From assembly GCA_035518775.1 (NCBI GenBank), contig DATIXH010000347.1, positions 1 through 27,965 of the forward strand: a stretch of 27,965 nt of DNA, given 5' to 3'. The stretch's first letter is position 1. Each line of letters opens with the position of its first letter. This DNA is from Candidatus Acidiferrum sp. (GTDB lineage: Bacteria > Pseudomonadota > Alphaproteobacteria > Dongiales > Dongiaceae). Below, one piece after another: positions 3,273-25,149 of the stretch. Under the pieces are notes generated by a model. It saw nothing but the letters and a program-made list of their open reading frames with translations. It ran no database searches and had not been told where the DNA came from. The position numbers were made by a program, and so were the translations under genes.

Positions 3273-3399
3273 GTGATGGATCGCCTTCGGAGATGCAAAG
3301 TTCTAAATTGTATTGGCGCTCTCTTCAGAAGTCCACCAGCGCGACTTCCGCTCGGGGTCCAAACGCCGTCCTGGGCGACCGGCGCGCCGACGTCCGGTC

Positions 3400-4481: not shown

Positions 4482-4928
4482 GTGCCCATTGATGTCGACA
4501 TCCCTCTGATCGATCGCCACTGCCACGGCTTGGTGCCGCGCAACCTGACGCGCCGCGAATTCAAGAAGCTGATCTTCGAGAGCTTCGTCGATGCGCCCCC
4601 CGGCACCAGCCATTTCGATGCGCCGTTCGGCCTGGCGATCCGCGCCCACTGCGCGCCGCTGCTCGATCTCGAACCTTTCCCCGACCCCGACGCCTGTATC
4701 GAGCGCCGCGCCAGGCTCGGCGTGGCCGAAGTCAACAAGCGCTTCGTGAAGGCCGGCACCCACGGCCTGCTGCTGATCGACACCGGCTTTCGCGCCGACG
4801 ACTTCCTGACGCCCGACGGCGTCACCAGCCTCACGGGTGTGCCGTCGCGCGAAGTCCTGCGTATCGAGGCGGCGGCCGAGCGCGGGGGCCGCAGCGACGT
4901 TTCCGCCGGCCACGGCGGATTGATATGA
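4482..4928 (+). pseudogene. N-terminal fragment of a metal-dependent amidohydrolase-like gene (truncated)
   Basis: 148-aa ORF beginning PIDVDIPLIDRHCHG (an HxH metal-binding motif typical of the amidohydrolase superfamily) that stops after ~150 codons. Full-length members are 300-450 aa. The long antisense ORF 4379..5641 is a low-complexity mirror. Confidence 0.4.
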
Positions 4929-5020
4929 ATCAAGGCGGTTTCCCGCGGGCTGCGCTTGTCTGAACAAGTGAGGGGGACCGATCTGTTGTTGGCAGCCCCC
5001 GCCTGTCGGGGACCTAGCCC

Positions 5021-5737: not shown

Positions 5738-5828
5738 TTCTTTTCACTCACGGCAGGAAGGTCGGCTTTCTCAGTGAAGCCGGACATTCCTGCACCGCCA
5801 TCTTGAAGCTTAGGCTGTTGTTAGGCTC

Positions 5829-7538: not shown

Positions 7539-7553
7539 GAGAGTCCGCTCTCC
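7538..7553 (+). terminator. Short hairpin at the SulP stop codon (GGAGAG/CTCTCC, no U-tract)
   Basis: Perfect 6-bp stem with a 4-nt loop overlapping the TAG. Convergent genes meet here. Confidence 0.3.
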
Positions 7554-7568
7554 TGGGAGAGCCACTCC

Positions 7569-7709
7569 ATGAAGACTGTTGACATCATCTACCGCTATGA
7601 AGCTGACCATTTAAGGCCAAGTGAGCGGCCACTCGACGCTGCGGCCGCGAAGCAGCGGATGGACGATGGCAACCAGGCGTTTGCGGCCCTCCTGGCAAGC
7701 CTAGTCTAG
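7569..7709 (+). CDS. 46-codon small ORF, possibly the N-terminal stub of a truncated gene (beta-carbonic-anhydrase-like N-terminus?)
   Basis: ATG at 7569 preceded by GGGAGAG. The peptide MKTVDIIYRYEADHLRPSERPLDAAAAKQRMDDGNQAFAALLASLV contains an L..GN..F-type motif seen near beta-CA N-termini. It lies in the convergent gap between SulP and the acyl-CoA ligase. Very tentative. Confidence 0.2.
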   Translation: MKTVDIIYRYEADHLRPSERPLDAAAAKQRMDDGNQAFAALLASLV

Positions 7710-7744
7710 CCCGCCGATTGCGCCCGCTCCGTATACGCAGAACT

Positions 7745-9262: not shown

Positions 9263-9314
9263 CGGTGATCCTCTCTCACGCGCGGCTCAATAGCCGAGCG
9301 CGCATCGCTAGAAA

Positions 9315-9995
9315 CTATTCGGCTGCCGCCGCGGCGCCGAGCAGGCCCTCGCGCACCGCTTCGATATGGCGGCGCATCAGATCCTCTGCCTGTGCGGGAT
9401 CGCGGCCGGCGATGGCACCGACATAGGCGCGGTGGTGTGCGCAATAGGCAGCGTGGCGCGCCGGGGTGAGCGCCACCTGGCGCAACGCGCTCCACTTCGC
9501 CTGTCTGCGCATCGCGTTGAAGGCATCGAAGATGGAGAGCAACAACCCGTTGTGCGCGGCCTCGGCGACCGCGCGATGCAAGCGCCCATCCCAAAGCTCC
9601 CAGGTCTTGGCATCGTGCGCCACCTCGCTCTTCTTCAATAGGCGCTGCATCTGCTCAATCTCCGCGTCGGTCGCGCGCAGCGCGGCCATCCTCGCCAGCA
9701 ACGGCTCGATCAGCAGCCGGGCCTCCAGCGCCTCGCTCGGGCTGGTATGCGATGTGATCATCGTGAGCGCCGTCGGGAGCGGTGTCGGGCGATTGCCGAC
9801 GAAGGTGCCCTGGCCGACGTGCCGCCAGATGCGCCCCTCTGCCTCCAACACCTCCAGGCCTTCGCGCAGCGCGCTGCGGCTGAGCTTCAGCATGGTTGCA
9901 AGCTCGCGTTCCGGTGGCAGCTGACTGCCCTGGGCAAATTCCGGCTGCTCAAGCAGTGCCGCGAGGCTGTTCAGTGCACGATCCCGACGACTCAT
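9315..9995 (-). CDS. GntR-family transcriptional regulator (FadR/FCD subfamily)
   Basis: 226-aa ORF. N-terminal wHTH (PPERELATMLKLSRSALREGLEVLEAEG) followed by an all-helical FCD-like C-terminal domain. Confidence 0.85.
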   Translation of the reverse strand: MSRRDRALNSLAALLEQPEFAQGSQLPPERELATMLKLSRSALREGLEVLEAEGRIWRHVGQGTFVGNRPTPLPTALTMITSHTSPSEALEARLLIEPLLARMAALRATDAEIEQMQRLLKKSEVAHDAKTWELWDGRLHRAVAEAAHNGLLLSIFDAFNAMRRQAKWSALRQVALTPARHAAYCAHHRAYVGAIAGRDPAQAEDLMRRHIEAVREGLLGAAAAAE

Positions 9996-9996
9996 T

Positions 9997-10108
9997 TTGA
10001 TACCATTGATCCATTGGTCTCAAAACGCGCTTTTGTTGACACACGAACACTGCAAATGCAAGCGTGTCATCCGTAAGTCAAATCTAAACCAATTCACATT
10101 GGTATCAA
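9997..10108. promoter_or_regulatory. Divergent promoter region with inverted repeats TTGATACCATTG (9997..) and CAATGGTATCAA-like (..10108), candidate GntR operator(s)
   Basis: The intergenic region between the divergent GntR and ABC-transporter genes is AT-richer. TTGATACCA at 9997-10005 is the reverse complement of TGGTATCAA at 10100-10108 (11 of 12 over the extended site). A local near-palindrome TTGATACCA-N8-TGGTCTCAA matches the t.GT...AC.a half-site style of FadR-type operators. Confidence 0.35.
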
Positions 10109-10127
10109 CTGAGCCCCGGGAGGCACC

Positions 10128-10949
10128 ATGATCGACACACGTTTAACCCAGCGCGTCGCCGCCGCCGTCACCTTTGCCGGCATCGCCCTCATCGGCAGCC
10201 ATACCTTCGCGCAGGACATCAAGGCGCCGGATTCAATCGTGAAGGCCGGCAAGATTGTCTATTGCACCGATATCAGCGCCCCGCCGCTCAGCTATTTCGA
10301 TGAGAACAATCAGCCGATCGGCTCGGACATCGATTTTGGCCAGGACATCGCCAAGCGCTTCGGCGTGAAGGCCGAGTTCGCCAATACGCCGTTCGACGGC
10401 ATCATCCCTGCGCTCCAGGCTAAGCAATGCGACGCCATCATCTCGGAACTGTTCGATAAGCCGAAACGCCGCGAGGTGGTCGACTTCGTGGACTATATGT
10501 ATTCCGGCCAGCAGTTACTGGTCGAGAAAGGCAACCCAAAGAACATCAAGAGCCTCGAAGATCTCTCCGGCGTGAAGATCGCGGCCCAGAACGGCACGAC
10601 CATCCAGAGCCTGGTTGAGGAACAGAATAAGAAGTTCGCCGCCGCCGGCAAGCCGCCGGCCGATCTGGTGATCTTCCCGAAGGACACCGACGCACTGCAG
10701 GCTCTGCAAATTCACCAGGTCGATGTCTACGGCACTACCGTGGAAAGTGCCGGCTTTTACTTGCTGAAGGCGCCCGACGCGTTCGAAGTGGCCGGCGAAC
10801 CCTTTGCGAAAATCGTGGCCGGCATCGCGACCCGCAAAGACGACACGGAGCTCCATGAAGCGATCCAGAAAGCATTCGACGCGATCAAGGCCGATGGCAC
10901 CGCGCTCAATATTTTGAAGAAGTGGCATATAGAGGGCAGCGTGCTTTAA
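10128..10949 (+). CDS. ABC transporter periplasmic substrate-binding protein, polar amino-acid (family 3) type
   Basis: 273-aa ORF with a signal peptide (AAAVTFAGIALIGSHTFAQD), SBP_bac_3-like composition and an RBS GGGAGG before the ATG. Confidence 0.85.
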   Translation: MIDTRLTQRVAAAVTFAGIALIGSHTFAQDIKAPDSIVKAGKIVYCTDISAPPLSYFDENNQPIGSDIDFGQDIAKRFGVKAEFANTPFDGIIPALQAKQCDAIISELFDKPKRREVVDFVDYMYSGQQLLVEKGNPKNIKSLEDLSGVKIAAQNGTTIQSLVEEQNKKFAAAGKPPADLVIFPKDTDALQALQIHQVDVYGTTVESAGFYLLKAPDAFEVAGEPFAKIVAGIATRKDDTELHEAIQKAFDAIKADGTALNILKKWHIEGSVL

Positions 10950-10958
10950 AGTCCCACT

Positions 10959-11738
10959 ATGCAATTCAGCTGGGATATCTTCACGCAGCATCTATTCGAG
11001 CCGAGCTCGTTCTTTCTGCACGGGCTCTGGCTCACCCTTTCCATCAGCGCTATCTCGCAGAGCATCGGCACCGCCCTAGGCGTTGCCGGTGCTCTGGGCA
11101 CGCAATCGCGCTTCCGCGGCGTCCGCATCGTGGTGGCGTTTTACATCTGGCTGTTCCGCGGCACGCCACTGCTAGTGCAGATCGTGTTCGTCTATACCGC
11201 CCTTGCGGCCGCCAACATCTTCCGCTTCCAGGACATGGATCTCGGTTTCGTGGTTATCCCCGGCAACATCCAGGCGGGCATTTTCGCGCTGAGCCTCAAC
11301 GAAGGCGCCTATATGACTGAGATCGTGCGTGCAGGCATCCTATCCATCGACCATGGCCAGACGGAAGCCGCGAAGTCGCTCGGCATGACCTATTTCAAGC
11401 TGATGCGGCGCATCATCTTGCCGCAGGCGGCGCGGGTGATCATCCCGCCGCTGGGCAATGAGTTCAATGCCATGCTGAAGAATACGACTTTGCTCAGCGT
11501 GATCGGTGTGCCGGAGATGATGCAGGTGACCGAGACTCAGATCTCGGCGACCTTCCGCTCCTTCGAGTTGCTGAGCGTAATTGCACTCTATTACCTGACC
11601 CTCACCACACTGTGGGGCTTTGCACAACGCGCCCTCGACCGACGCTTCGGCGAAGCCAAGGGCAGCCGTGCGCAGAACGAAAGCATGGTCGGTCGATTGC
11701 GCCGGCTCCTGATGCCGAGCCGGGATGTGTTGCGATGA
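10959..11738 (+). CDS. ABC transporter permease, polar amino-acid (His/Glu/Gln/Arg/opine) family
   Basis: 259-aa ORF with multiple TM segments and the EAA-like loop (EAAKSLGMTYFKLMRRIILPQA). Confidence 0.85.
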   Translation: MQFSWDIFTQHLFEPSSFFLHGLWLTLSISAISQSIGTALGVAGALGTQSRFRGVRIVVAFYIWLFRGTPLLVQIVFVYTALAAANIFRFQDMDLGFVVIPGNIQAGIFALSLNEGAYMTEIVRAGILSIDHGQTEAAKSLGMTYFKLMRRIILPQAARVIIPPLGNEFNAMLKNTTLLSVIGVPEMMQVTETQISATFRSFELLSVIALYYLTLTTLWGFAQRALDRRFGEAKGSRAQNESMVGRLRRLLMPSRDVLR

Positions 11739-11762
11739 GCGAGACCGCCGGGATGTGATGCG

Positions 11763-12530
11763 ATGAGTGAGAACATTGTCGAAGCAACCAACGTCGAGAA
11801 ATGGTTCGGCAACCATCAGGTGCTGAAGAACGTCTCCATGACAGTGAAGCGCGGCGAGGTTGTCGTGATCGTCGGCCCGTCTGGCTCCGGCAAAACCACC
11901 TTCATTCGCTGCGTCAATCATCTGGAGAAAATCCAGAAGGGCCGCATCCTGGTGAACGGCCATCTGATCGGCTATCGCGAGCGCAACGGGCAATTGATTG
12001 AGGATGCCGAGCGCAATATCGCGCGCCAGCGCCGCGATATCGGCATGGTTTTCCAGCGGTTCAACCTGTTTCCGCATCTGACCGCCCTCGGCAATATCAT
12101 TGAGGCACCCATCCAGGTCCGGGGCGTGCCAAAGGACGAGGCGATTGCCACCGCCGGTGCATTACTCGCCCGCGTCGGCCTCGCCGAGAAAGCCAACTCG
12201 TACCCGGCGCAACTCTCAGGCGGCCAGCAACAGCGCGTCGCCATCGCTCGCGCGCTCGCCATGAAGCCAATCCTCATGCTGTTTGACGAGGCGACCAGCG
12301 CCCTTGACCCCGAGATGATCGGCGAGGTGCTGGAGGTGATGAAGGAACTTGCCCGTGACGGCATGACTATGATCGCGGTGACGCATGAGATGGGTTTCGC
12401 CCGCGAGGTCGCCGACCGCGTCATCATGATGGATGACGGCAAGATCGTCGAAGACACGCCGCCCGACCGGTTCTTCACCACCCCGCGTTCCGAGCGTAGC
12501 AAGGCCTTCCTCGCCCGCATCCTGCATTAG
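11763..12530 (+). CDS. ABC transporter ATP-binding protein (polar amino-acid importer ATPase)
   Basis: 255-aa ORF. Walker [13 protein letters not shown] signature [15 protein letters not shown], Walker [14 protein letters not shown], and an H-loop. Confidence 0.9.
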
Positions 12531-12626
12531 CTCTTCCAGTTGAAGACGTAGGGCGTCAGCACTCTGCTCAACATCGACGACAATCCAAAGCGACGGAGCA
12601 TGGCGTCAAAGAGCGAAGGAGATCCA

Positions 12627-13394
12627 ATGGCGAATGAAACTGACACCCCCGTCGCGCTCATCACCGGGGCGTCGCGCGGCATTGGCCGCGCGACCGCGGA
12701 GACTCTCCTAAGAGAGGGGTATGATGTTCATGCCACATTCATCAGTCGCCGGGACTCGGCTGAAAGCCTGTTCAACGTCGCCAATGCGCTTGGCCGCAAA
12801 CTGACACTACATCAATACGACGCGGCTTCCCGCGAAAGCCAGGATCTTCTAATCCAGCACCTGTCGAAGACAAAGCTCCGAGCCATCGTGCACAACGCCG
12901 GCGTGGTACGGTTTGAGCGCTTCACCGATTATGACCAGAATATTTGGGATCAGACGTTCGAGATAAATCTCAACTCGGCTCTGCGGTTGACCCTCGGACT
13001 TCAGAACCGGCTGTCATCCGGCGCTTCTATTGTGCTGGTAGCCTCCACCGACGCGTTCGTCGGATCCTACGCAAGCATGGCCTACGCCGCCTCTAAGACA
13101 GCGATGACAAATCTGACCCGCAGTCTCGCTTGCAACTTCGGCCCGCGAAACATTCGTGCAAACGCTGTTGCCCCGGGCTGGATAAGTACGGACATGACAA
13201 CGGCAGCGTCCTCCGGTTCATCGTCTGTTACTCCGCTTGGGCGCGACGGCAGACCTGACGAGGTCGCCAACGCGATCGCGTTCCTGCTGTCGGACCGCGC
13301 AAGTTTCATCACGGGTACTACGTTGGTAGTTGATGGCGGCTATACCTCGTCGGACCCAATCATGCTGAATGAAGCACGCGAAATTGTTGGATAG
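12627..13394 (+). CDS. Short-chain dehydrogenase/reductase (SDR), low-GC gene
   Basis: ORF 12600..13394. Start moved to ATG 12627 (AAGGAG, then 5 nt, then ATG). Cofactor motif TGASRGIGRATA, NAG motif NAGV, catalytic YxxxK (YAASK). GC is visibly lower (~55%) than in flanking genes. Confidence 0.8.
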   Translation: MANETDTPVALITGASRGIGRATAETLLREGYDVHATFISRRDSAESLFNVANALGRKLTLHQYDAASRESQDLLIQHLSKTKLRAIVHNAGVVRFERFTDYDQNIWDQTFEINLNSALRLTLGLQNRLSSGASIVLVASTDAFVGSYASMAYAASKTAMTNLTRSLACNFGPRNIRANAVAPGWISTDMTTAASSGSSSVTPLGRDGRPDEVANAIAFLLSDRASFITGTTLVVDGGYTSSDPIMLNEAREIVG

Positions 13395-14194
13395 CGCTCG
13401 TTGCGAAAGGAATGTCCCTACTGAAAACTAGATTCGGGCGTAGCGGTGATGCAATCCGCCGACCTTGGGTTCGGCAATGATGCGACCAAATCGCTCAATT
13501 GGCCGGCCGATCGGCGCATCCTTGACTAGCGACAGGTGCGTGCGAGACTCGTTGTAGTAGCTGGCATACATCGCCACAATCCGGCGAAGGTGCGTCTCGC
13601 CGAGCACAATCACTTGGTCAGTGCATTCGAGCCGTACCGAGCCGATCAAACGCTCTGCGTAGGCGTTTTGCCAGGGCGACCGCGGCGCGGTTGGTCGATC
13701 CCGGACCCCGAGCGCACGCAGACGTCGCCTCACGACGTGGCCATAGACGGCGTCTCGATCGCGCACCAGATATCTGGGCGCTGTGTCCCACGGGAAGGCC
13801 TCGGTCATCTGCCGAGCAACCCAGTCAGCCGTCGGATGCGCCGTTATGGCGTGGTGAACGAGCTCCCTTCGGCCCCTACAGAGCTTTCGCTGACGGCAGC
13901 CATCGCGGCGGACCAGTTTGCGCGTGAGGCCTGTCCGCTAAAGAGCTCGCAGGCGCGCTGCTCTCCATGATGGCCAGGAGCCCATCGAGCTCCAAATTAG
14001 AGGCCGGATACATTGATGCAAGACCGCTCACCGCCAACTCGACGAACCCTCTTGCAACGCACCGCCGGACCATACATTGGTTCACACAGAGACTATCTGG
14101 CCACGTCCGCAGAAAGGCAGGTAATCCCCAGCTAGCGGACGTCTCGTCTTCGTTCGCGTGGAGTTTGAAGCCGGATGTGCAAACCCGTTGTACG
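13395..14194. mobile_element. Insertion-sequence remnant (transposase fragment plus flanking non-coding DNA)
   Basis: Contains the truncated transposase frame above plus ~250 bp without coherent coding signal. Lies between a low-GC cargo gene and the integrase gene. Confidence 0.45.
13428..13937 (-). pseudogene. DDE transposase/integrase-core (rve-like) C-terminal remnant, N-terminally truncated
   Basis: Open frame of 170 codons with no proper start (first ATG at 13808). It carries the conserved IS-transposase C-terminal region RSPWQNAYAERLIGSVRLEC...YYNESRTHLSL. The N-terminal catalytic domain is missing. Confidence 0.6.
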
Positions 14195-15421
14195 CTATCT
14201 CTGTTTGCCCCGGAGCTTTACGACCTTTGCTGCCGGTTTGCCGGCCATCGCGGCGGCGATCCGCCGGCCAATGGCTTCATTGGCGACCTTCACCGGGTCA
14301 TGATCCAAGTGCGCATATCTCGCAGTCGTCTGCGGCTGCGAATGGCCCAGAAGCTTGCCAATCATCGGTAACCCCATGCCAGACCCAGCGCCGACGCTGG
14401 CAAAACTATGACGTAGATCGTGCAGGCGAACATCGTCGAGCCCGGCCGTCTTGCGGATGCGTCGCCACGGTTTTTCCAAATTGACCAGATGCGCCCCCGT
14501 CTTGCCGCCGACGATCACATATGGATTGCCTGTCACGCGCGGAAGGGCGTCTAGAACGGCACGGGCCGGAGCGGACAGGTGGATCGTCTTGGCGCCGCTC
14601 TTGCTGTCCGGCAGGCGGGCGATGCCCTTGTCCAGGTCGATCCATTGCCACCGGAGCGTGAGGACTTCCGTCATGCGGGCACCGGTGAAGATCAGCAGCC
14701 GCACCGCCGCTACCTGATAGAGTTTTGCAGGATCGGCTTCGGCCGCCACCAGCGCGTCACCGAGGCGGGTCAATTCATTGGGCCTCAGGAAGCGTTCCCG
14801 TGGGCGCTCAGCGTACTTTTCTAGTCCCTGGCATGGATTATCCCCAGCCAGCGGGAAACCGTTGCGGTGGCCCCAGCCGAGTATCTTGGACAGCAGGGTC
14901 ACGGTCCTGTTGGCGGTCACCCGAGTGGGTCGCAGCTTGTAATGCAGGGTGCCGACATGCACAGCCGTCAGGTCGGGGACGCGGACGGCGCCCAGCTCCG
15001 GCAGGATCAGCCGATCGATGAGGGCGCGATAGGTCTGCTCGGTGCGCGGCTTCTTTTTGGCGACGTGAATTTCGAGGAACTGTTCCGCCAGCCGGCGGAC
15101 GGTTTGTGTCGGGTCGAGCTTCTTTTCATCAGCGGGATTGGCGCCCTCGACGACGCGCCCCAGGATACGCAGCGCCTCTTGCCGGGCCGTGTCCACCGTC
15201 CAGGGCGAGCCGTACTTGCCGATGGTGTAGCGCCGTTTGGGCGCCGCTCGGCCGCTGCCCTGCCGATATTGCACGAAGAATGTCTTGCTGCCGCCGGGCG
15301 ACACTTTCAGGCCAAAACCGATCACCTTCCGGTCGAACATGAGCTTAGTCGCCAACCGGCCCTTGCGCATGGCCGGTTTCGCCGCGTCGATCCTGCCCTT
15401 GGTCAGTCCTTGCGCTGCCAT
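14195..15421 (-). CDS. int: Tyrosine-type site-specific recombinase (phage/ICE-family integrase) with N-terminal Arm-DNA-binding (DUF4102-like) domain
   Basis: ORF 14195..15670. Start moved to ATG 15421 (AAGGGGG RBS), giving MAAQGLTKGRIDAAKPA... A P4-type Arm-binding N-terminus, and C-terminal catalytic boxes HDLRHSFAS and TTARYAHL with the nucleophilic Tyr. Confidence 0.85.
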   Translation of the reverse strand: MAAQGLTKGRIDAAKPAMRKGRLATKLMFDRKVIGFGLKVSPGGSKTFFVQYRQGSGRAAPKRRYTIGKYGSPWTVDTARQEALRILGRVVEGANPADEKKLDPTQTVRRLAEQFLEIHVAKKKPRTEQTYRALIDRLILPELGAVRVPDLTAVHVGTLHYKLRPTRVTANRTVTLLSKILGWGHRNGFPLAGDNPCQGLEKYAERPRERFLRPNELTRLGDALVAAEADPAKLYQVAAVRLLIFTGARMTEVLTLRWQWIDLDKGIARLPDSKSGAKTIHLSAPARAVLDALPRVTGNPYVIVGGKTGAHLVNLEKPWRRIRKTAGLDDVRLHDLRHSFASVGAGSGMGLPMIGKLLGHSQPQTTARYAHLDHDPVKVANEAIGRRIAAAMAGKPAAKVVKLRGKQR

Positions 15422-15561
15422 TATCGCCCCCTTACGCCAGCACCCACCGAGTACCCACGGCACTAGGTAGTCATGGCGGGATGTGACGGCAAGAGGATGC
15501 TGGAAATATCTGCTTTTCTGCGCTCCTGACGATTTCTGGCGGCTTGAGCGAAGCTTGAACT

Positions 15562-15611
15562 GCAGTTTCCTAAACCGTAGGTCGGGTGTTCGAGTCACCC
15601 CGGGGACGCCA
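15562..15611 (+). other. tRNA-Arg(CCU)-like 3' fragment ending in CCA (anticodon arm, variable loop AGGTC, T-arm GGGTG-TTCGAGT-CACCC, acceptor 3' strand CGGGGAC-G-CCA); candidate attR of an integrated element
   Basis: Perfect T-arm and a 3' acceptor strand plus CCA are present. The anticodon loop is TTCCTAA. No complementary 5' acceptor strand (GTCCCCG) and no D-arm occur upstream, so this is a fragment, not a gene. It lies 140 bp from the integrase start. Confidence 0.45.
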
Positions 15612-15630
15612 CTCCAGCACAAGACTGGGC

Positions 15631-15685
15631 GCCAAATTGGTCCGGCATCACTGAGCGGTTCGGCCGGCAATTTGGCCTTTTCCCC
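15631..15685 (+). terminator. Long stem-loop (GCCAAATTGGTCCGGC ... GCCGGCAATTTGGC) followed by CTTTTCCCC: likely the native terminator of the tRNA gene whose 3' end is the att fragment
   Basis: A ~14-bp stem with a 2-nt bulge, a 16-nt loop and a downstream T-run on the plus strand, 20 nt after the CCA. Confidence 0.45.
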
Positions 15686-15764
15686 GCTGATGCGGTGTCG
15701 GTACCATCGACACTAAACTCGTCGACGATCGACCGAAGGGTCATCGCAGAGCATTCTAAGTTGC

Positions 15765-15795
15765 AGGGCCCCTCTCGCCATGCGGGAGGGGCCCT
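15765..15795 (-). terminator. 13-bp near-perfect hairpin (AGGGCCCCTCTCG-CCATG-CGGGAGGGGCCCT), 13 nt downstream of the Zn-ribbon gene stop
   Basis: Thirteen contiguous pairs with one G-U and a 5-nt loop. No clear U-tract, which is common for high-GC alphaproteobacterial terminators. Confidence 0.4.
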
Positions 15796-15807
15796 AACGA
15801 GTCTCGA

Positions 15808-16122
15808 CTAATCGAAAGCACCGAAGATGTCGTCGAGAAAGCCGCGGCGGCGGCGACCGTCATCGCGGCCGTGTCGACCCCGACGGTCGCCGTCGTCATC
15901 GTCGTCCCGGTCGCGGCCACGCCTGCCATCACGTTCATCGTCGTCGTCGCGACCGCGGGTGCGATCGACTGCGGTACGCGCCTCGGCCGCCGAGCGCTCG
16001 ACGATCTTGTCAAGCTCACCACGGTCGAGCCAGACGCCACGGCATTTCGCGCAATAGTCGATCTCGATTCCTTGGCGATCGGCCATCACCAGGTCGCTCT
16101 CAGCGCAGGATGGGCATTTCAT
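15808..16122 (-). CDS. Zinc-ribbon protein (CPxC ... CxxCxGxWLDxGEL, TFIIB-type Zn-ribbon) with a highly charged Arg/Asp-rich low-complexity tail
   Basis: 104-aa ORF with strong RBS AAGGAGG. Its ATG overlaps the TerC stop (ATGA), indicating translational coupling. The tail RGRDDDDERDGRRGRDRDDDDDGDRRGRHGRDDGRRRRG is low complexity. Confidence 0.7.
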   Translation of the reverse strand: MKCPSCAESDLVMADRQGIEIDYCAKCRGVWLDRGELDKIVERSAAEARTAVDRTRGRDDDDERDGRRGRDRDDDDDGDRRGRHGRDDGRRRRGFLDDIFGAFD

Positions 16123-17135
16123 GTGGCACCTCCTTTGGATTGAGATTCGGGTTTAGCAGGTTGTTGCGGGCTACCGGGCACCCAACCGGTGAAAGCCGGC
16201 GCGGGCACGGGTGGCTTCATCTTGGTCTTGATCAACGACAGCACGATCGAGCCGCCGATGAGCGTTCCGGTGGTGGCCAGAGCAATCTCGGTGGGCATGA
16301 CCTTCTCGCCGAAGATGCCGTTTAGGATCATCTTCGCGCCCACCACGCAGAGCACCAGCGACAGGCCGTATTTCAGGTAGTGGAAGCGGTGGATCACGCC
16401 GGCGAGCGCGAAATAGAGCGCGCGCAGCCCGAGGATCGCGAACACGTTTGCGGTAAGGACAATGAAGGGCTCCTGGGTGATGGCGAAGATGGCCGGGATT
16501 GAGTCGACCGCGAACACAAGGTCGGTGAACTCGATGATGATCAGCGCCAGAAACAGGGGCGTGGCCCACAGCGCGCCCTCCTTCCGGATAAAGAATTTCT
16601 GCCCGTCATACTCGTTCGTCACGCGCAGGTGGCGGCGCGTGAAGGCAATGATCCGATTGTTCGCCAGATCCGGCTCGACGTTGATGCTGAGCAGCATCTT
16701 GATGCCGGTTAAGACCAGGAACGCGCCGAACAGCAGCACGATCCAGTGCACGGTCGAGATCAGCGCCGCCCCCGCCGCGATCAAGAGGCCACGCATGATG
16801 AGCGCGCCCAGGATGCCCCAGAACAGTACGCGGTGCTGGTACTGCGGCGGCACGGCGAAATGGGTGAAGATGAGGACGAAGACGAAGACGTTATCGAGGC
16901 TGAGTGACTTCTCGATCAGATAGCCGGTCAGGAACTCGTAGCCGGCTTGCTCCCCAAGCAAATGGAACACGCCGACGTTGAAGATGCCGGCTAGCACCAC
17001 GTAGAGGAAGCTGAGGAGGAGCGCTTCGCGAACCGACACCGTCTTCGGCCTGCGATGCAACACGCCAAGATCGAAGGCGAGAAGCAGCAGGACGAAACCG
17101 ATGAAGCCGAGCCAAAACCAGATCGTGATGACCAT
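16119..17135 (-). CDS. TerC-family integral membrane protein (Alx/TerC, putative metal/Mn2+ exporter family)
   Basis: ORF 16119..17156. Start moved to ATG 17135 (GGAGGG, then 4 nt, then ATG). About 8-9 TM helices and conserved TerC motifs (SLDNVFVF, EFTDLVFAVDSIPA). Confidence 0.85.
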   Translation of the reverse strand: MVITIWFWLGFIGFVLLLLAFDLGVLHRRPKTVSVREALLLSFLYVVLAGIFNVGVFHLLGEQAGYEFLTGYLIEKSLSLDNVFVFVLIFTHFAVPPQYQHRVLFWGILGALIMRGLLIAAGAALISTVHWIVLLFGAFLVLTGIKMLLSINVEPDLANNRIIAFTRRHLRVTNEYDGQKFFIRKEGALWATPLFLALIIIEFTDLVFAVDSIPAIFAITQEPFIVLTANVFAILGLRALYFALAGVIHRFHYLKYGLSLVLCVVGAKMILNGIFGEKVMPTEIALATTGTLIGGSIVLSLIKTKMKPPVPAPAFTGWVPGSPQQPAKPESQSKGGAT

Positions 17136-18138
17136 CGGACCCTCCAGATGCGCCAACGCCAGTTCGCGGCGTCGAGGCAGGTGGAACAGTCCGACATCGC
17201 AGCCGACGGAGCGATCGACTGCCAGAGGGGCCCGGACCCACGAGCCAAGGCGGCTCGTAGGAGGCTAGGTTGGAAACGACCCGCGGGGTTTCAAGGGGGA
17301 TGGACCGTTAGGCGCCGAATATAGGCAGCGACCGATCAGGTATCAGCGACCATATGACCTACCCGACGTCAGTAGACGGCTGCGCGCGTCGAGCTTCCAC
17401 CCGGAGGACGCAAGCCATAGCGGACGAACGGGCCCGCGGGCCATCATGTCGCGGATCGGGCGGGGCACATCGCCCTTCTGTTTCGCGACCATTGCGATCC
17501 ATGCTGCGACATTCTCTTTGTTAACCGGCAAATCGAAAATTGCCCCGGTGCGGATCGACTGATCACGCGGACAGGCATTCGTCCTCACCGCAGCAGGTCC
17601 ACCTCTCCTGAAGGGAGGCGACTCCACGACGAGTGACCCCACATTCTCAAAGCCGGTTTTTAAGGCTCGATAATCTGATCTCTGATCGCAAAGCGCGCCA
17701 GATCGGGCAGAGAGCCAAGCTCGAGTTTTCGCATGATGGCTTCAGGCAAGGGATGCCGCAGAGAGCCTGGACGATGTCCAGCCTGGTCGACCATCCGGAC
17801 CGGCAGCAAGCTCCCGATATTTGTGCGATATCTAGGATGAGGCGCCCGTACGCGCACGGGGCTACAGAACGGACGATGCCGCATTTTCCGCGAGTAGCCC
17901 GAGCATCAGGTGGACCACGGTAGGGCCCTTGAAATCAAGGGCTGCTACGAGAAGTTCCTGAGCCGAATTGTTGCCGGGCACCAGCGAGGACCACGCCAAG
18001 GACGAACCCACCGCCCAACCGGGCACCAATCGTGCCCAGCCGCGACGAGAAAAACAATCATACTTCAGTGCCCAGTTTCATCCAGCATAGGACGCCACTC
18101 TCACAAGCAACCAGCTATACCGCGCCCGCGTTGCTTGC

Positions 18139-20797: not shown

Positions 20798-21232
20798 TCA
20801 GAGGTTGTTCGGATTGCCCGCAACGATCGTGCGCTTGGCGTGCTGCTCGCCGGCCGCAAAGTCGTATGCGCCATCCTGCTCTCGTGTCACCGCGACACAA
20901 CTCTTGTAGTCGTGGCTCGGGAAGACGACGCAGAGCCGGTCGCCATCGACCTGCCATGTTCCCAGATATTCCTCGTCCGCGTCCTCGATTTCCCGCCCGC
21001 GGATGGATCCATCGGGAGCGTAGTATTCTGAGAATTTGGGGCCTTTGACCGTGTTGCCCGAGACCAGGGCCCGGATCTCCGCGCCCGTAAGCGCGCCGAC
21101 GCCTTGCGTCGGAGCGGGCGAGAAATACCGGAAACCGGCGACCCCGCCGGCGGCGAGCGCAAGAGCGAGGATGATGAACGCCAGGGTCGTGCGCGATGCC
21201 GCCATATCGTCTTCTCTGCCGCCAAGCCGCAT
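20798..21232 (-). CDS. Small hypothetical exported protein
   Basis: 144-aa ORF (alternative start ATG 21205). Hydrophobic signal-like segment (TTLAFIILALALAAGGVAG), then a soluble ~110-aa domain with two Cys. Good RBS (AGGAGA) before the ATG at 21232. Confidence 0.5.
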   Translation of the reverse strand: MRLGGREDDMAASRTTLAFIILALALAAGGVAGFRYFSPAPTQGVGALTGAEIRALVSGNTVKGPKFSEYYAPDGSIRGREIEDADEEYLGTWQVDGDRLCVVFPSHDYKSCVAVTREQDGAYDFAAGEQHAKRTIVAGNPNNL

Positions 21233-21413
21233 ATTCTCCTGTGACTAATACGACACATCGGCATCAAAAGCGCGCGAAAGGAGAATTTAATCTTGAATTC
21301 CGTTTCGACTTGCGTCATAAGCGCGGCCCTTCGCTCAGCCCCGTGCGCGGGCTCGTGAGGCACCGGCTGGCGCGATGCGCAGTGCGTATTCGTGTTCCGC
21401 TGAACGAAGGATG

Positions 21414-21482
21414 GTGGTCGCTAGCTCAGAGGCAGAGCGCCGGGGAGACCCGGAGGCACCGGTTCGAGTCCGGTCGATCACG
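21414..21482 (+). tRNA. Aberrant tRNA-like element (probable tRNA pseudogene): good D-arm, T-arm and acceptor pairing (with one G-U) but a 3-nt 8-9 spacer and a 4-nt anticodon loop
   Basis: GTGGTCG-CTA-GCTC-AGAGGCA-GAGC-G-CCGGG-GAGA-CCCGG-AGGC-ACCGG-TTCGAGT-CCGGT-CGATCAC-G. The T-loop TTCGAGT is canonical. Acceptor stems pair 7 of 7 with one G-U. The anticodon stem closes a tetraloop, so no anticodon can be assigned. No CCA. Confidence 0.35.
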
Positions 21483-21486
21483 CAAG

Positions 21487-21560
21487 AAGAGGATAGCTCA
21501 GATGGTTAGAGCAGATGCCTGATAAGCATCCAGTCGCGGGTTCGACTCCCGCTCCGACGC
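21487..21560 (+). tRNA. Aberrant tRNA-like element with anticodon GAU (Ile-like): canonical D-arm, anticodon arm, variable loop and T-arm, but the acceptor stem pairs only 3 of 7
   Basis: AAGAGGA-TA-GCTC-AGATGGTTA-GAGC-A-GATGC-CTGATAA-GCATC-CAGTC-GCGGG-TTCGACT-CCCGC-TCCGACG-C, followed by TCC (no CCA). Internal arms are all perfect; the 5' strand AAGAGGA does not complement the 3' strand TCCGACG. It sits 4 nt after the previous tRNA-like element. Confidence 0.35.
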
Positions 21561-21889
21561 TCCGGTTCAGCCTGTTACGCTGAATTCCACTGTAGGGAAC
21601 CGGACGCGCGCTTCAGTCGCGGTCCGGTCGCCTGGCCGAAAGGCCTTCCGTCCGAACTGAGACACCGTGAGACCGGCCCTGCGCCGCGGCGGATATCGCC
21701 TGCGCGGGTCGCCGGGTCCACCCTTCGAGCGTCAGGCTCCGGTCTGGCGACAGGAGAGGTGTGCCCGCCGTCCCGCCTCGCTCAAGCCCCGGTCCGCCGC
21801 TCCCGCGGGAAGAACGCGTCCGGGACCCGTGTCCTCCAGATGAACCTGCTCCGCGGCTCTGTCGCGGGGCCAAGGAAAGGAGACGTGTC

Positions 21890-23041
21890 TTGAGTCGTTT
21901 TCTGCTGATGCTGCGCGTGACGGTGAAGGACGGCGAGCGTGCCCTCCTGCTGCGCAACGGCCGCTACGAGCGGGCGCTCGGTCCCGGCCGCCACCGTCTG
22001 TTCGATCCGAAGCGCGAGCTGACGGTCGAGAGCTTCAAGGTCGTGCAGGCCGAGTTCTCGGCCGAGCGCTACGCCGTGATCAAGGCGGAGCGGCCGGAGA
22101 TGGCGGCTGCGCTGTTCGAGGCGGTGGAGACGCGGGCCAACGAGCTCGCCATCGTCAGCCTCGACGGCCGTCCGACGCACCTGGTCGGCCCGTGGAAGCT
22201 GCGCGTGTTCTGGAAGGTGGCGACGGCTGTGACGGTCGAGCGCATCGACACGGCCAGCGACCCGACGGTCGACCCGCGCCACCTGGCGCTGATCGACCGC
22301 GCGCACAACCCGTTCGCGGCCGAGACGGTGGTCGAGAACCACGAGGCCGGCCTGCTCTATGTCGAGGGCCGGCTGGTGGAGCGGCTGGCGCCGGGCCGTC
22401 ACACCTACTGGACGGTGAACCGCAAGGTCGAGGTGAAGCGCCTGGATCTGCGCCCGCAGGCGGTCGAGATCACGGCCCAGGAGATGCTGACCAAGGATCG
22501 CATCGCCCTGCGCGTGACCCTGACGGCGCTGCGCCGCATCACCGATCCCGAGCGCGCGGTCGCTGCGGTCGTGGACGTGGATGCGTGGCTGTACCGCCTG
22601 GTGCAGTTCGCCATCCGCGAGGCGGTGGCGGCCCGCACGCTCGACGAGGTGCTCTCGGCCAAGAGCGTGCTCGACGCGGAGCTGCGCAGCTTCGTGCGCG
22701 AGCGCCTGGGCGAGACCGGCATCGAGGTGACGGAGCTCGGCGTGAAGGACGTGATCCTGCCCGGCGAGATCCGCGAGCTCGTGAACAAGGTGGTGGAGGC
22801 GGAGCGGACGGCGAAGGCCAACCTGATCCGCCGCCAGGAGGAGACCGCGGCGACGCGTTCGCTCCTCAACACCGCCAAGCTGATGGAGGAGAACCCGCTC
22901 CTCCTGCGGCTGAAGGAGCTCGAGAGCCTCGAGCGGCTGGTGGAGAAGGTGGGCCGCATCGATCTCCACGCCGGCGAGGGCGCAGGCCTCGATGCGCTGC
23001 TCAGCAAGCTGGTGCGCCTGAAGGCGGACGAGCCGGCATGA
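21890..23041 (+). CDS. SPFH/band-7 (stomatin/HflK-C/flotillin-like) domain protein, soluble, with a partial duplicated SPFH N-terminal module and a C-terminal coiled-coil
   Basis: ORF 21761..23041. Likely start TTG 21890 (AAGGAAAGGAGA RBS, 6-nt spacer) or ATG 21908. Two copies of the SPFH-opening motif (DGERALLLRNGRYERALGPGRHRLF and EAGLLYVEGRLVERLAPGRHTYW), then a complete band-7 core (ITAQEMLTKDRIALRVTLTALRR...LIRRQEETAATRSLL). No TM helix. The antisense ORF 21782..22969 is a mirror. Confidence 0.8.
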   Translation: MSRFLLMLRVTVKDGERALLLRNGRYERALGPGRHRLFDPKRELTVESFKVVQAEFSAERYAVIKAERPEMAAALFEAVETRANELAIVSLDGRPTHLVGPWKLRVFWKVATAVTVERIDTASDPTVDPRHLALIDRAHNPFAAETVVENHEAGLLYVEGRLVERLAPGRHTYWTVNRKVEVKRLDLRPQAVEITAQEMLTKDRIALRVTLTALRRITDPERAVAAVVDVDAWLYRLVQFAIREAVAARTLDEVLSAKSVLDAELRSFVRERLGETGIEVTELGVKDVILPGEIRELVNKVVEAERTAKANLIRRQEETAATRSLLNTAKLMEENPLLLRLKELESLERLVEKVGRIDLHAGEGAGLDALLSKLVRLKADEPA

Positions 23042-23107: not shown

Positions 23108-23890
23108 TCAGGCGGCTTCGGCCGCCGGGAGATAGATCGTCACGGTCGTGCCCTTGCCGGGCGCGCTCACGAGCGTGACATAGCCGCCGGACTGGCGGGC
23201 GAACCCCTCGACGGTGCTGAGGCCCAGCCCCCTGCCCTTGCCGCCGCGCTTGGTCGAGAAGAAGGGATCGAAGGCGCGGCGCGCCACGTCAGGCGTCATG
23301 CCCGTACCGGTGTCGGTGACGGCAAACGCGATGTAGAGACCGGGCGCGACGTCCACCAGCTGCTGCGCCTGCGCTTCGGCGATGCGCGCACTCCCCGCCT
23401 CGAGCAGCAGGCGGCCGCCCTCGGGCATCGCGTCGCGGGCGTTGCTTGCCAGAGCCATGGCCGCCACCTCGAGCGCCGCGGGATCGGCCAGCGCCGGCCG
23501 CAGGCCGCCGGCACAGGCCAGCTCGACCGCGATGGCGCCGCCGAGCGTGCCGCGCAACCGCTCGGAAAGTCCCGCGACGAAGCGCTCGACTTCGATGGGT
23601 TGCGGCCGTAGCGGCAGCCGCCGCGCCACCGCGAGAAGACGGCGGGTCAGGTCCGCGGCGCGCTGGGCGGCCTCGGCGATCAAGGTTGCCATCTCGTGGG
23701 TCGGCGTGCCCGCCTCGAGCTTGGCCGTGAGCATCTCGCTGTTGCCGAGGATGGTCATCAGCAGGTTGTTGAAGTCGTGCGCCACGCCGCCGGCGAGCTG
23801 GACGACCGCCTGCGTCTTCTCGGCCTGCCGCAGCTGCTCGTCCCGCGCCGCGCGCGCGGCCTCGTCAGGGCTGTCGGAACCGGTCGTCAT
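23108..23890 (-). CDS. Soluble histidine kinase core (HisKA plus HATPase_c) without recognisable sensor or TM domain
   Basis: 260-aa ORF. H-box GVAHDFNNLL; N, G1, F and G2 boxes (SNARDAMPEGG, DTGTGM, GKGRGLGLSTV). Only ~35 aa precede the H-box. The start ATG overlaps the stop of the upstream oxygenase-fusion gene (ATGA). Confidence 0.85.
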   Translation of the reverse strand: MTTGSDSPDEAARAARDEQLRQAEKTQAVVQLAGGVAHDFNNLLMTILGNSEMLTAKLEAGTPTHEMATLIAEAAQRAADLTRRLLAVARRLPLRPQPIEVERFVAGLSERLRGTLGGAIAVELACAGGLRPALADPAALEVAAMALASNARDAMPEGGRLLLEAGSARIAEAQAQQLVDVAPGLYIAFAVTDTGTGMTPDVARRAFDPFFSTKRGGKGRGLGLSTVEGFARQSGGYVTLVSAPGKGTTVTIYLPAAEAA

Positions 23891-25059
23891 CCCGTTCGGG
23901 ACGTCTCTGCGGGGGCGGCGGAACCCGCGACCGCGCGCTTCACCTCGTCGCGCAGGCGGTCGTCGGCGAGGTAGCCCAGATTGGCTTCGCGCAGCTTGGC
24001 GCCGGATTCGTCGTAGAGGAACGGCAGAACGGCGTAGCGCCGGCCGCGCGTCACCGGGAGCGCCTCGTGCATGAGCGAGCAGGAGAAGACGATGGCCCCG
24101 CCGCTCGGCGCCCGGTAGCTCTCGCGCCCGAACTCCGGGAAGCAGAGGTCGCCGCCGTCGTAGTCCTCGGCGTTGAGGTTGATGGTCACGGCGAAGCGGC
24201 GATGCGCCGTGCCCTTGGTGGTGTTGTCGCGATGCGGCCGGAAGTAGCCGCCCTCGCCGGCGTCGTAGCAGGCGACGATGTAGCGCTCGATGTAGCTGAC
24301 GCGGAACTGGAAGGCCTTGCGCACCTCCGGCACCAGACGGCGCTCGATGCGGATGCGGATGCCCTGGCGCGCGGCGGCGTCCTCGATCACGTAGTCGCGC
24401 CGGCGCTTGCGGCCGTAGTCGATGACGCCGACGGTCTTGCCCGCGGCGTCGGAGGTCATGTAGCCGCTATCCTCGCCGCCGTGGCGATCGTAGAGCGCCA
24501 TCAGTTCGCGGCAGAACTCGGGCTCGAACAGCTGCGGCACCAGCAGGACCGGGGCGCCGGCCCGGGCGGGCCGCACGCCGCCCAGCGGCGGCAGACGGCC
24601 GATAAGGTCGAGCAGATGCTGGGCGTGGGCAGCCGGATCGGCGATCGGCAGCACCGCCAGCACCCGCAGCGCGGGATCGAGGAGGAAGGTGGTCGGCTGG
24701 TAGCGCGAGGCCTCGGCCGTGGCCGCCGGCTCGCTGCAGACGCCGTAGCGGGCGCCGATCTTGAGGCCGAAGTCCCACAGCAGCCGGAAGCCGGGAATGC
24801 GCTCCTCGACCCGCTTCTCCTGCCCGTCGGCGGGATCGGCGCCGACGCCGAAGAAGGAGGCGTGGCCGTCGTCGAAGACGTCGCCGCGCTGGCGGAGCGC
24901 CGCCAGCATCTGGGCAATGGCCGGGTTGCCGGCCGAGCCGTAGAAGCAGAGGGCGATATAGCGCCCAGCCACAGAGTCGAAGTGGTAGCGCGGGTTGTTC
25001 GGCGACGGCGCGATGAACCAGGGGGCGGGGTCGCCGGGGGTCAGGCGGGCGGTCGTCAT
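23887..25059 (-). CDS. Fusion protein: N-terminal AhpC/TSA (redoxin, thioredoxin-fold)-like domain lacking the canonical peroxidatic Cys motif, plus C-terminal 2OG-Fe(II) oxygenase (PiuC/YbiX/prolyl-4-hydroxylase-like) domain
   Basis: ORF 23887..25137. Likely start ATG 25059 (MTTARLTPGDPAPWFIAPS, a Prx-like opening). The redoxin-like region (YIALCFYGSAGNPAIAQ) has GNPA where TPVC would be. The C-terminal domain has the facial triad HRD...(DYDGGDLCF)...H (MHEALPV) and an RxA/S-type 2OG-binding site (RGRRYAVLPF). Confidence 0.75.
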   Translation of the reverse strand: MTTARLTPGDPAPWFIAPSPNNPRYHFDSVAGRYIALCFYGSAGNPAIAQMLAALRQRGDVFDDGHASFFGVGADPADGQEKRVEERIPGFRLLWDFGLKIGARYGVCSEPAATAEASRYQPTTFLLDPALRVLAVLPIADPAAHAQHLLDLIGRLPPLGGVRPARAGAPVLLVPQLFEPEFCRELMALYDRHGGEDSGYMTSDAAGKTVGVIDYGRKRRRDYVIEDAAARQGIRIRIERRLVPEVRKAFQFRVSYIERYIVACYDAGEGGYFRPHRDNTTKGTAHRRFAVTINLNAEDYDGGDLCFPEFGRESYRAPSGGAIVFSCSLMHEALPVTRGRRYAVLPFLYDESGAKLREANLGYLADDRLRDEVKRAVAGSAAPAETSRTG

Positions 25060-25121
25060 GCCGGCCGACGATACCACATTTCGCCGGCCGCACGGGGTCG
25101 GCCCGATGGCGCACCAGATCC

Positions 25122-25149
25122 GAGCGATGGACCCCATGCCAAGCGGGGA
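25122..25149. repeat. Copy 1 of a ~28-nt repeat (GAGCGATGGACCCCATGCCAAGCGGGGA); overlaps the first possible start codon of the oxygenase-fusion ORF
   Basis: Direct repeat shared with 25241.. and 25391.. (about 24 of 28 identical). On the minus strand each copy reads CCGCTGGGCATGGGGTCC(A/T)TCGCTC, an ATG in a fixed context. Confidence 0.6.

Follow-up and report, generated by a model that had tools for sequence, protein, structure and literature searches.

Two tRNA-like elements lie in tandem on the plus strand of the 27,965-nt stretch of DNA analysed here (the whole stretch is hereafter called the window), upstream of a gene for a slipin, a protein of the SPFH/Band-7 group, and the question they raise is whether they are broken tRNA genes or parts of an RNA of another kind. 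The original prediction, made from the sequence, held that each element carries a structural defect and would be a pseudogene, and it offered for the pair a scar of recombination between tRNA-derived att sites, degenerate attachment sites for the flanking accessory genes, or a tRNA-derived structured RNA.

Anatomy of the two tandem tRNA-like units

Both elements are found at the predicted place and match the tRNA family RF00005 above its gathering score of 29 bits. The cmscan match to the first, unit 1, at 21415-21481 on the plus strand, scores 39.2 bits (E 4e-5) over model positions 1-71, and that to unit 2, at 21491-21555 on the same strand, scores 52.2 bits (E 1e-8) over model positions 5-66 only. 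ARAGORN made a sole call in the region, at 21414-21483, namely 'tRNA-???' with a 2-nt 'anticodon', and called no tmRNA there. The original prediction had named as a refuting outcome a covariance-model match that shows either element to be an ordinary tRNA whose acceptor is correctly paired; unit 2, aligned over model positions 5-66, gave no such match, whereas that of unit 1 is technically of this kind, being full-length with a well-paired acceptor, yet it has no anticodon loop. Besides tRNA, a search of Rfam at E<=10 over 21150-21850 gave nothing but weak matches below threshold (E 0.5-8.4), all to unrelated families and none to a Y RNA, and at a permissive threshold no significant family except tRNA was found in 18 related loci. 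The window holds a single instance of the pattern TAGCTCA-N26-33-GGTTCGA-N20-40-TAGCTCA, which is absent from all of 100 dinucleotide shuffles. The parts of the two units are as follows.

21414-21485, plus strand: unit 1, tRNA-like, placed by the RF00005 match of 39.2 bits, the ARAGORN call 'tRNA-???' and pairing in homologues
21414-21420 / 21475-21481, plus strand: unit 1 acceptor helix, 7 bp, one G.U among them
C21421-U-A, plus strand: unit 1 linker between acceptor and D stems, 3 nt, against 2 nt in tRNA
21424-21438, plus strand: unit 1 D arm, canonical, read from sequence and alignment
21440-21444 / 21449-21453, plus strand: unit 1 capped stem replacing the anticodon arm, 5 bp, with the GAGA tetraloop at 21445-21448
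21458-21474, plus strand: unit 1 T arm, canonical; the 3' tail G-CAA follows the acceptor
21482-21490, plus strand: unpaired linker between the units, 9 nt (21486-21490 being the part after the unit 1 tail), of varying length and sequence among homologues
21491-21555, plus strand: unit 2, tRNA-like, RF00005 52.2 bits over model positions 5-66
21491-21493 / 21553-21555, plus strand: unit 2 acceptor helix GGA/UCC, 3 bp, with 3 of 7 positions paired
21496-21512, plus strand: unit 2 D arm, perfectly paired
21514-21530, plus strand: unit 2 anticodon-like arm, 7-nt loop CUGAUAA on a 5-bp stem
21536-21552, plus strand: unit 2 T arm, preceded by a 5-nt variable loop

Sequence and alignment confirm for unit 1 the 3-nt spacer, the GAGA tetraloop and the lack of an anticodon loop, and for unit 2 the perfect D, anticodon (CTGATAA), variable and T arms next to an acceptor paired at 3 of 7 positions, all of which had been described originally. 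The spacing of 4 nt that had been given presumes 7-nt acceptor strands and has to be corrected, as the unpaired linker between the helices is 9 nt long. The acceptor of unit 2 is truly 3 bp, because the RF00005 match ends at model positions 5-66; that of unit 1 has 6 pairs in the cmscan alignment and 7 in the register with the 3-nt linker, and it carries G3-C70 and G4.U69.

Of the features of a functional tRNA, the 5-bp stem with a 7-nt anticodon loop is present in unit 2 and missing from unit 1, and neither unit has the combination of a 7-bp acceptor, a discriminator and a CCA-compatible end, which unit 1 lacks despite its 7 bp on account of the 3-nt linker and the G-CAA tail. An anticodon conserved among orthologues is likewise absent, with 30 triplets in 109 orthologous loops. 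The pair is thus similar to genuine tandem tRNA genes in RF00005 score, arm lengths and conserved tertiary nucleotides, but differs from them in the missing anticodon loop of unit 1, in the 3-bp acceptor and missing CCA of unit 2, and in a freely varying 'anticodon'.

Conservation and covariation of the tandem core

The RNA is a selected structure with the architecture described above. One genome per species was scanned for the same pattern, in DNA only, and this yielded at least 120 loci, a sample in which the short first gap of the pattern selects for a truncated anticodon arm. Fifty diverse tandem cores were aligned (alignment A1) and scored against the cloverleaf-pair structure. Paired cells amount to 86.2%, compared with 70.2% in column shuffles, and the covariation score is 0.43 compared with 0.14, none of 500 shuffles reaching the true value; when the register is slid by 1-3 nt, the score falls to 0.07-0.15. 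Double changes are seen in 29 of the 41 pairs, and compensatory changes occur in every variable helix and across phyla.

In unit 1 the D arm is paired in 98.5%, the capped stem in 91.6% and the T arm in 98.8% of cases among the 50 homologues, with compensatory changes in all five pairs of the capped stem, and in unit 2 the D, anticodon and T arms are 100% paired, with compensatory changes in all five anticodon-stem pairs. The capped stem, both T stems and the unit 2 anticodon stem, taken together, are 92-100% paired and carry many double substitutions. No variation is seen across the 50 cores in the D stems or the elbow nucleotides, nor in the equivalents of U8, A14, the G18G19-type D loop, and G53, T54, Psi55, C56, A58 and C61.

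The short capped arm of unit 1 is present in 50/50 aligned homologues, and its cap is mostly GNRA and 3-5 nt long in 42 of them. The acceptor of unit 1 has 6-7 bp throughout, in a register that differs by clade, and the linker to the D stem is 3 nt in the window and the Bradyrhizobium-type clade and 2 nt elsewhere; MAFFT places this acceptor out of register between clades (51% paired), and the register was set by hand and by script. In unit 2 the inner three acceptor pairs covary (GGA/UCC, GAC/GUC and others), the helix being 4-6 bp in other clades, and the loop keeps C32, U33, A37 and A38 at 73-88%, usually with U36. GUU, CAU, GAU and UUU recur among the 30 triplet values that the 109 homologous loops hold.

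Since the triplet varies freely while the structure is conserved, the units are not decoding tRNAs, and what were called defects are design features. To read them as decay is at odds with a capped arm present in every aligned homologue and a 3-nt linker common to a whole clade, and compensatory changes conserved across phyla contradict the statement that each unit would be a pseudogene. The further remark that a stand-alone tRNA-Ile(GAU) is odd has no bearing here, as the anticodon triplet varies among homologues.

The leader, the slipin gene and their variants

The tandem core is embedded in a longer RNA, the architecture of which was drawn from 45 alphaproteobacterial loci. In the clade of the window, about 560 nt from the sigma-70-like promoter to the slipin start are conserved and structured, and are made up as follows.

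21292-21320, plus strand: putative sigma-70-type promoter, -35 CTTGAA at 21292-21297, 17-nt spacer, -10 TCATAA at 21315-21320
21326-21413, plus strand: 5' domain (~85 nt), with hairpins at 21345-21367 and 21371-21394 and the motif CGUGUUCCGC
21391-21400, plus strand: near-invariant motif CGUGUUCCGC, by sequence conservation in the 45 alphaproteobacterial loci
21566-21571 / 21579-21584, plus strand: hairpin UUCAGC/GCUGAA, 96% paired in RNAalifold, 2 compensatory pairs
21585-21588 / 21596-21599, plus strand: hairpin UUCC/GGAA, which with the preceding hairpin lies directly 3' of unit 2
21600-21876, plus strand: 3' domain of long GC-rich nested helices, about 280-330 nt conserved up to the RBS
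21877-21882 and 21890-21892, plus strand: slipin RBS AAGGAG and TTG start, aligned with GGAG-N7-ATG of homologues
21890-23041, plus strand: slipin (SPFH/Band-7) gene, 383 aa, soluble product, 335 nt 3' of unit 2

The putative promoter aligns with the conserved CTTGCA-N17-CTATTA of Bradyrhizobium-type homologues, a conservation that suggests its assignment as sigma-70-like, and a strict scan for the E. coli consensus did not call it; the RNA is predicted to start near 21327. A regular expression for sigma-54 promoters matched upstream of the RNA twice in 93 loci, with a good-looking match in Thiothrix (L038) only, and a sigma-54 promoter for the window RNA was rejected, as the window and Bradyrhizobium carry the sigma-70-like one.

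In RNAalifold the two hairpins of the 5' domain are 97-98% paired, with 4 and 6 compensatory pairs, and the hairpins that follow unit 2 (21566-21599) covary in the alignment (UUCAGU/ACUGAA, UUCGGU/ACCGAA, GUCAG/CUGAC). The 3' domain contains near-identical blocks between genera with slipin proteins of 75-84% identity, and its RNAalifold helices have 1-7 compensatory pairs each in a tentative fold, the run on the full leader being a sketch from 19 sequences that mis-folds unit 2. A covarying hairpin (21848-21870) lies just 5' of the RBS. Single-sequence folding of the region was uninformative (z = 0.4), and a stem closing both units in the single-sequence MFE structure (GCUGAAC 21399-21405 with GUUCAGC 21565-21571) was rejected, as the homologues favour the local UUCAGC/GCUGAA by covariation. 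No run-of-U terminator was found between the RNA and the slipin start codon in the window or in the alignments, the sole terminator-like match on the plus strand being at 21370-21387 within the 5' domain; therefore the RNA would be co-transcribed with the slipin gene, at least initially.

Along its entire length, the 383-aa product shows 100% identity to the database protein P0001 ('slipin family protein'). It has no hydrophobic segment (top 19-residue hydropathy 1.36), and in its AF2 model (pLDDT 81) two beta-rich modules at the N-terminus precede an SPFH domain and a long C-terminal helix; the modules repeat 'E.G.L..R.G....L.PG.H', the motif that opens the SPFH domain. The major vault protein aligns with it over 265 residues, and PADLOC and NCBIfam assigned it to no defence system and no specific family. 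Judged by the SPFH fold and long helix of the ring- or cage-forming stomatin, HflK, QmcA and flotillin, it is plausible that the slipin is the scaffold of a ribonucleoprotein.

A slipin orthologue lies downstream on the same strand, at 250-700 nt, in 93 of 120 loci among the matches listed (tblastn), and the tandem pair is present in 93 genomes or more, representing at least seven phyla, with hosts among the Alpha- and Gammaproteobacteria, Bacteroidota, Planctomycetota, Verrucomicrobiota, Cyanobacteria (a Calothrix) and Synergistota (a Fretibacterium). As a check on bias, 80 metagenomic loci were fetched by slipin protein alignment alone and then searched with the covariance model of the RNA core (R1). 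All 56 usable loci, which are those with the protein N-terminus present and at least 650 nt of upstream DNA, have an R1 match 250-650 nt upstream on the same strand, and a crude D-arm/T-arm regular expression recovers 51 of the 56; the proteins of these loci are 40-83% identical to the slipin of the window. The linkage between the RNA and the slipin gene is near-obligate. A viral origin was also considered and rejected, as a search of IMG/VR found only 4 slipin relatives.

The reading of the pair as decayed tRNA genes, or as scars of integrase recombination at tRNA att sites, can draw on the single feature of a working tRNA that is missing from each unit, on an integrase gene 6 kb away (14195-15670) and on some related loci that adjoin tRNA arrays. 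However, these 'defects' are found again in phylum after phylum with compensatory substitutions, the pair goes with one protein family in about 100% of cases, RNA structure is conserved in the flanks as well, and both units have 5' halves, which are absent from att duplications. Unlike a tRNA pseudogene or att remnant, the structure is under purifying selection and is not restricted to a lineage. A recombination scar does not account for the fixed orientation and distance to the slipin gene or for the embedding in a conserved leader of about 560 nt with a promoter, and degenerate attachment sites fail on the same constancy and on a conserved leader with a promoter of its own. The comparative data exclude this reading, which we regard as vanishingly improbable, and of the options first offered it is the tRNA-derived structured RNA that proves right. 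The proposed tie to flanking genes stands for the SPFH gene, as a functional link and not as an insertion boundary, and has to be dropped for the kinase/oxygenase genes; no such cluster of neighbours is shared by the loci.

Lineages differ in the 3' end of unit 1. N-CCA is encoded after it in many Alpha- and Gammaproteobacteria, and among 97 tandem units with a well-paired acceptor from all fetched loci, including some ordinary tandem tRNAs brought in by the pattern scan, 38 end in N-CCA and 18 in N-CAA, and G3.U70 is present in 30; some Hyphomicrobiales have GGGG... acceptor starts together with A73. These N-CCA tails, the G3.U70 pairs, the Hyphomicrobiales ends and the 6-7 bp acceptor would suit a unit 1 that is a chargeable, tmRNA-like minimal tRNA, aminoacylated at its N-CCA end (e.g. 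by AlaRS via G3.U70, a mode of charging that needs no anticodon) and acting in translation rescue or peptide tagging. Against this, unit 1 of the window carries G3-C70, G4.U69 and the tail G-CAA, and gammaproteobacterial units have 6-bp stems without G3.U70. Moreover, in Bacteroidota and Synergistota the units form chains and are circularly permuted, a T arm coming first, then a capped hairpin and a D arm, and the 'acceptor' helix is closed by a loop, so that a free 3' end is not required there and is no requirement of the family. The tRNA-like domain of tmRNA is also a tRNA mimic without an anticodon, and some slipin-RNA lineages share G3.U70 and an encoded CCA with it, but the slipin RNA has a full D arm and no tag reading frame, and the window has neither G3.U70 nor CCA. 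Charging is possible in some lineages and unlikely as the function of the family, and as an explanation of unit 1 we consider it very improbable.

A reduced variant is found in E. coli, where a 36%-identical slipin is encoded between yjbD and lysC in about 1,626 of 5,426 complete genomes (about 30%), its gene being followed by one for a Pol-beta nucleotidyltransferase. In the 530 nt upstream, a good sigma-54 promoter is accompanied by the GUGUUCCG motif, a single T arm and a capped hairpin; this region has no annotated RNA, no Rfam match and no R1 match. Therefore, two complete tRNA mimics are not universally required. The GUGUUCCG motif is common to the 5' domain of the window and this reduced variant.

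RNA-repair neighbourhood and proposed role

The slipin-RNA pair is often linked to RtcB, RtcA or RtcR. In a clustering of ORFs around all slipin loci, RtcB adjoins the slipin gene in 39 related loci, and no recurrent neighbours across clades were found besides RtcB, RtcA and RtcR. The rtcB gene typically follows the slipin stop by 12-250 nt, and sometimes the order is rtcB-RNA-slipin; Pfam confirms RtcB, as well as RtcA in locus L175 and a divergently transcribed RtcR in locus L053, and in L098 an ORF is placed similarly to the RtcR of L053. The 28 kb of the window contain no RtcB, RtcA or RtcR (best RtcB tblastn E 0.4), and Pfam detected no TROVE domain in the large ORFs around the element. 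A repair role for the copy in the window is thus an extrapolation, and the best-supported reading of the window is a stand-alone RNA-slipin cassette without Rtc genes.

The abstract of Burroughs and Aravind from 2016 reportedly names 'SPFH/Band-7 modules' with 'a novel tRNA-like molecule' as cognate RNA. According to the description quoted in bioRxiv 10.1101/312249, some bacteria encode RtcB beside a predicted ncRNA, b7a-tRNA, and a Band-7 protein; the RNA is credited there to Burroughs & Aravind (NAR 2016), is occasionally interchanged with YrlA/Rsr and had at that time 'not been validated experimentally'. Literature searches for a tRNA-like RNA with SPFH, stomatin or slipin proteins returned nothing relevant, the link being reached via RtcB and 'Band-7', and no experimental test of b7a-tRNA was found in the searchable literature. 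A 2026 survey reports that the Pseudomonas aeruginosa SPFH protein PaFlo8 sits within the rtc locus and that deletion of paFlo8 gave no phenotype in the assays done (PMC13086221).

We equate the two RNAs by description, namely that quoted in bioRxiv 10.1101/312249 together with the reported wording of the 2016 abstract. As far as this description goes, b7a-tRNA is a tRNA-like ncRNA beside a Band-7/SPFH protein, and the window shows both features; the adjacency of RtcB is missing from the window and present in the 39 related loci, and it is treated here as a frequent, not obligatory, feature of the class. The RNA described here differs from the quoted b7a-tRNA in having two tandem units in a leader of about 560 nt, with permuted and reduced variants. 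It is likely that the window RNA is a member of the b7a-tRNA class and the functional partner of the slipin gene, and, taken as a whole, the best explanation of the two units is that they are probably the tRNA-like core of a conserved structured RNA tied to that gene.

The main rival is a purely cis-acting leader, that is, a structured 5' UTR of about 560 nt that would control slipin translation or mRNA stability with no stable RNA-slipin complex, the tRNA-like modules being entry sites for RNase P/RNase Z or sites for tRNA-binding factors. The RNA always lies upstream of slipin, on the same strand and at 250-700 nt, and its constant position 5' of the slipin start fits such a leader equally well, in keeping with the lack of an intrinsic terminator before the start codon and with conservation that runs up to the RBS and includes the covarying hairpin at 21848-21870. 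However, in some operons the RNA is located between rtcB and the slipin gene, as is yrlBA in Salmonella, the products of which are free Y RNAs; the exact elbows and the N-CCA tail on unit 1 in many lineages are more than a cleavage signal needs; and no alternative-pairing switch was found. A leader of this purely cis-acting kind is therefore judged rather unlikely.

A close likeness to an RNA-slipin partnership is that of YrlA/YrlB with Ro60 (Rsr) in rsr-yrlBA-rtcBA, which shares with the slipin RNA a tRNA-mimicking ncRNA in an RNA-repair operon, a ring-forming scaffold protein, two RNA units in tandem and the retained D/T-loop elbow (PMC4201824; PMC7790460). It differs in that the partner of the slipin RNA is an SPFH and not a TROVE protein, and in that the slipin RNA consists of tRNA folds in ordinary order, whereas YrlA has its tRNA-like module set into a long stem; the window alignments show no stem for Ro60 binding, and there is no Rfam match to Y RNA.

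We propose that the RNA makes up the first ~560 nt of the slipin mRNA, with a sigma-70-like promoter of its own at about 21292-21320, and that it folds into two L-shaped tRNA mimics flanked by the 5' and 3' structured domains. Both units retain all nucleotides for the D-loop/T-loop elbow, unit 1 presenting a capped stub instead of an anticodon arm and unit 2 a tRNA-like loop, C32 U33 NNN A37 A38, with a freely varying triplet. An oligomeric slipin would most likely bind this RNA, by analogy with the module of Ro60 (Rsr) and the Y RNA YrlA, which is found at the same position in rtc operons, either as the leader or as an RNA excised by tRNA-processing enzymes. The slipin-bound RNA could then show tRNA-like surfaces that recruit or mimic tRNA in the handling of damaged tRNA, and scaffold protein and tRNA mimic would act on damaged tRNA or on tRNA-handling enzymes. 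The transcription start, the physical binding by slipin, the processing and the RNA-repair role are what we infer here, and a Y-RNA-like ribonucleoprotein mechanism with slipin is tentatively put at somewhat less than an even chance.

The vault particle, in which a major vault protein with an SPFH-like shoulder goes with vault RNA, is another close system. A bolder proposal, which we hold to be quite improbable, is that the soluble slipin forms a closed SPFH ring or cage, as a bacterial counterpart of the vault, and uses the double tRNA mimic that it carries as bait or sensor; the loop of unit 2 would be a decoy or sentinel for anticodon nucleases. Cleavage of this loop (CU-NNU-AA) would feed Rtc-type repair or signalling, and the diversity of the triplet, together with the tRNA arrays that lie directly upstream in several genomes, might have been left by an arms race in which tRNA cleavage is at stake.

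In conclusion, operons of RtcB/RtcA are widespread. The RNA class is already known, as it was predicted in 2016, and because Rfam 15 has no family for the slipin-associated RNA, annotation leaves it blank or invites the reading as a 'broken tRNA'. As far as can be told, the extent of about 560 nt, the two-unit and permuted architectures, the ~100% linkage to slipin, the freely varying anticodon and the E. coli variant go beyond the accessible literature. The extent, the architectures, the near-obligate pairing with one soluble SPFH subfamily and the sigma-54-driven E. coli variant permit a proper family model and direct experiments, by which the part of tRNA mimics and SPFH scaffolds in responses to RNA damage could be studied.

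Divergent forms of the tRNA-like RNA

In the anticodon-like loop of unit 2 of the tRNA-like RNA (window 21519-21525) and in its homologous loops, C32, U33, A37 and A38 are kept, U36 is mostly kept, and positions 34-35 vary freely among homologues. The C32/U33/U36/A37/A38 context is that of ANN-decoding, t6A-modified tRNAs.

Circular permutation marks the tRNA-like units of Bacteroidota and Synergistota (related loci L004, L018, L015 and L048), which lie 5′ of the gene for slipin, a soluble SPFH/Band-7 protein, and run from the T arm through a hairpin-closed 'acceptor' to the D arm. These permuted units are chained two or three times, and the chain is followed 3′ by an anticodon-like arm and a conserved GAAG...CUUC...GGUG element.

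Among complete E. coli genomes, about 30% have, between yjbD and lysC, a cassette of slipin and a Pol-beta nucleotidyltransferase (RlaP-like), which is adjoined by a zeta-toxin gene. The region 5′ of this slipin is as follows.

E. coli upstream region
L202 4964-5492 (E. coli NZ_CP116176.1 161424-161952): 530 nt, unannotated

Within it occur a sigma-54 promoter TGGCACgcttcTCGCA, the motif GUGUUCCG, and a single T arm (GGGTTCGATTCCCA) with a capped hairpin, and the region appears to be a reduced version of the window's tRNA-like RNA.

Genomic surroundings and provenance

Other features of the window
4211-4280, minus strand: int-alpA RNA (RF02996, 40.6 bits)
14195-15670, minus strand: tyrosine integrase gene
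16119-17156, minus strand: TerC-family membrane protein gene
17182-17243, minus strand: terC RNA motif (RF03067, 60.1 bits)
23108-23890: histidine kinase fragment, adjoining the fusion gene
23887-25137, minus strand: AhpC/TSA peroxiredoxin and 2OG-Fe(II) oxygenase domain fusion protein

The int-alpA RNA, the tyrosine integrase gene and a GC shift at about 18 kb, from ~0.60-0.65 to ~0.69-0.73 beyond, together suggest that a mobile island spans about 1-18000, its end lying a few kb 5′ of the tandem tRNA-like units; no tRNA gene at its putative border was found within the window. The terC motif sits directly 5′ of the TerC-family gene, its usual place. Downstream of slipin, the peroxiredoxin-oxygenase fusion is without linkage to the tRNA-like RNA in other genomes, as judged from the neighbours of related loci.

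The database protein P0001, identical to the window's slipin, carries the label of an Acidobacteriota MAG, 'Candidatus Acidoferrum sp.', whereas its nearest named relatives, and likewise those of the tRNA-like RNA, are alphaproteobacterial (Stellaceae, Xanthobacteraceae, Bradyrhizobium). This discordance between label and sequence relatives points to a contig that may be mis-binned or recently transferred.

tRNA arrays upstream of the cassette

In eight loci, the tRNA genes that ARAGORN identified directly 5′ of the cassette of tRNA-like RNA and slipin, with or without the RNA-repair ligase RtcB, form arrays of 5-20; they appear to be genuine and between them account for most amino acids.

tRNA arrays (ARAGORN; all on the same strand as the cassette)
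L180 50-3409
L199 282-2865
L164 63-1366
L166 2386-3422
L186 502-1322
L193 78-1575
L004 2502-3605, minus strand
L189 1251-1960

The position of a spare tRNA set beside an RNA-repair module suggests that the two have a common role in helping the cell to survive tRNA-targeting toxins.
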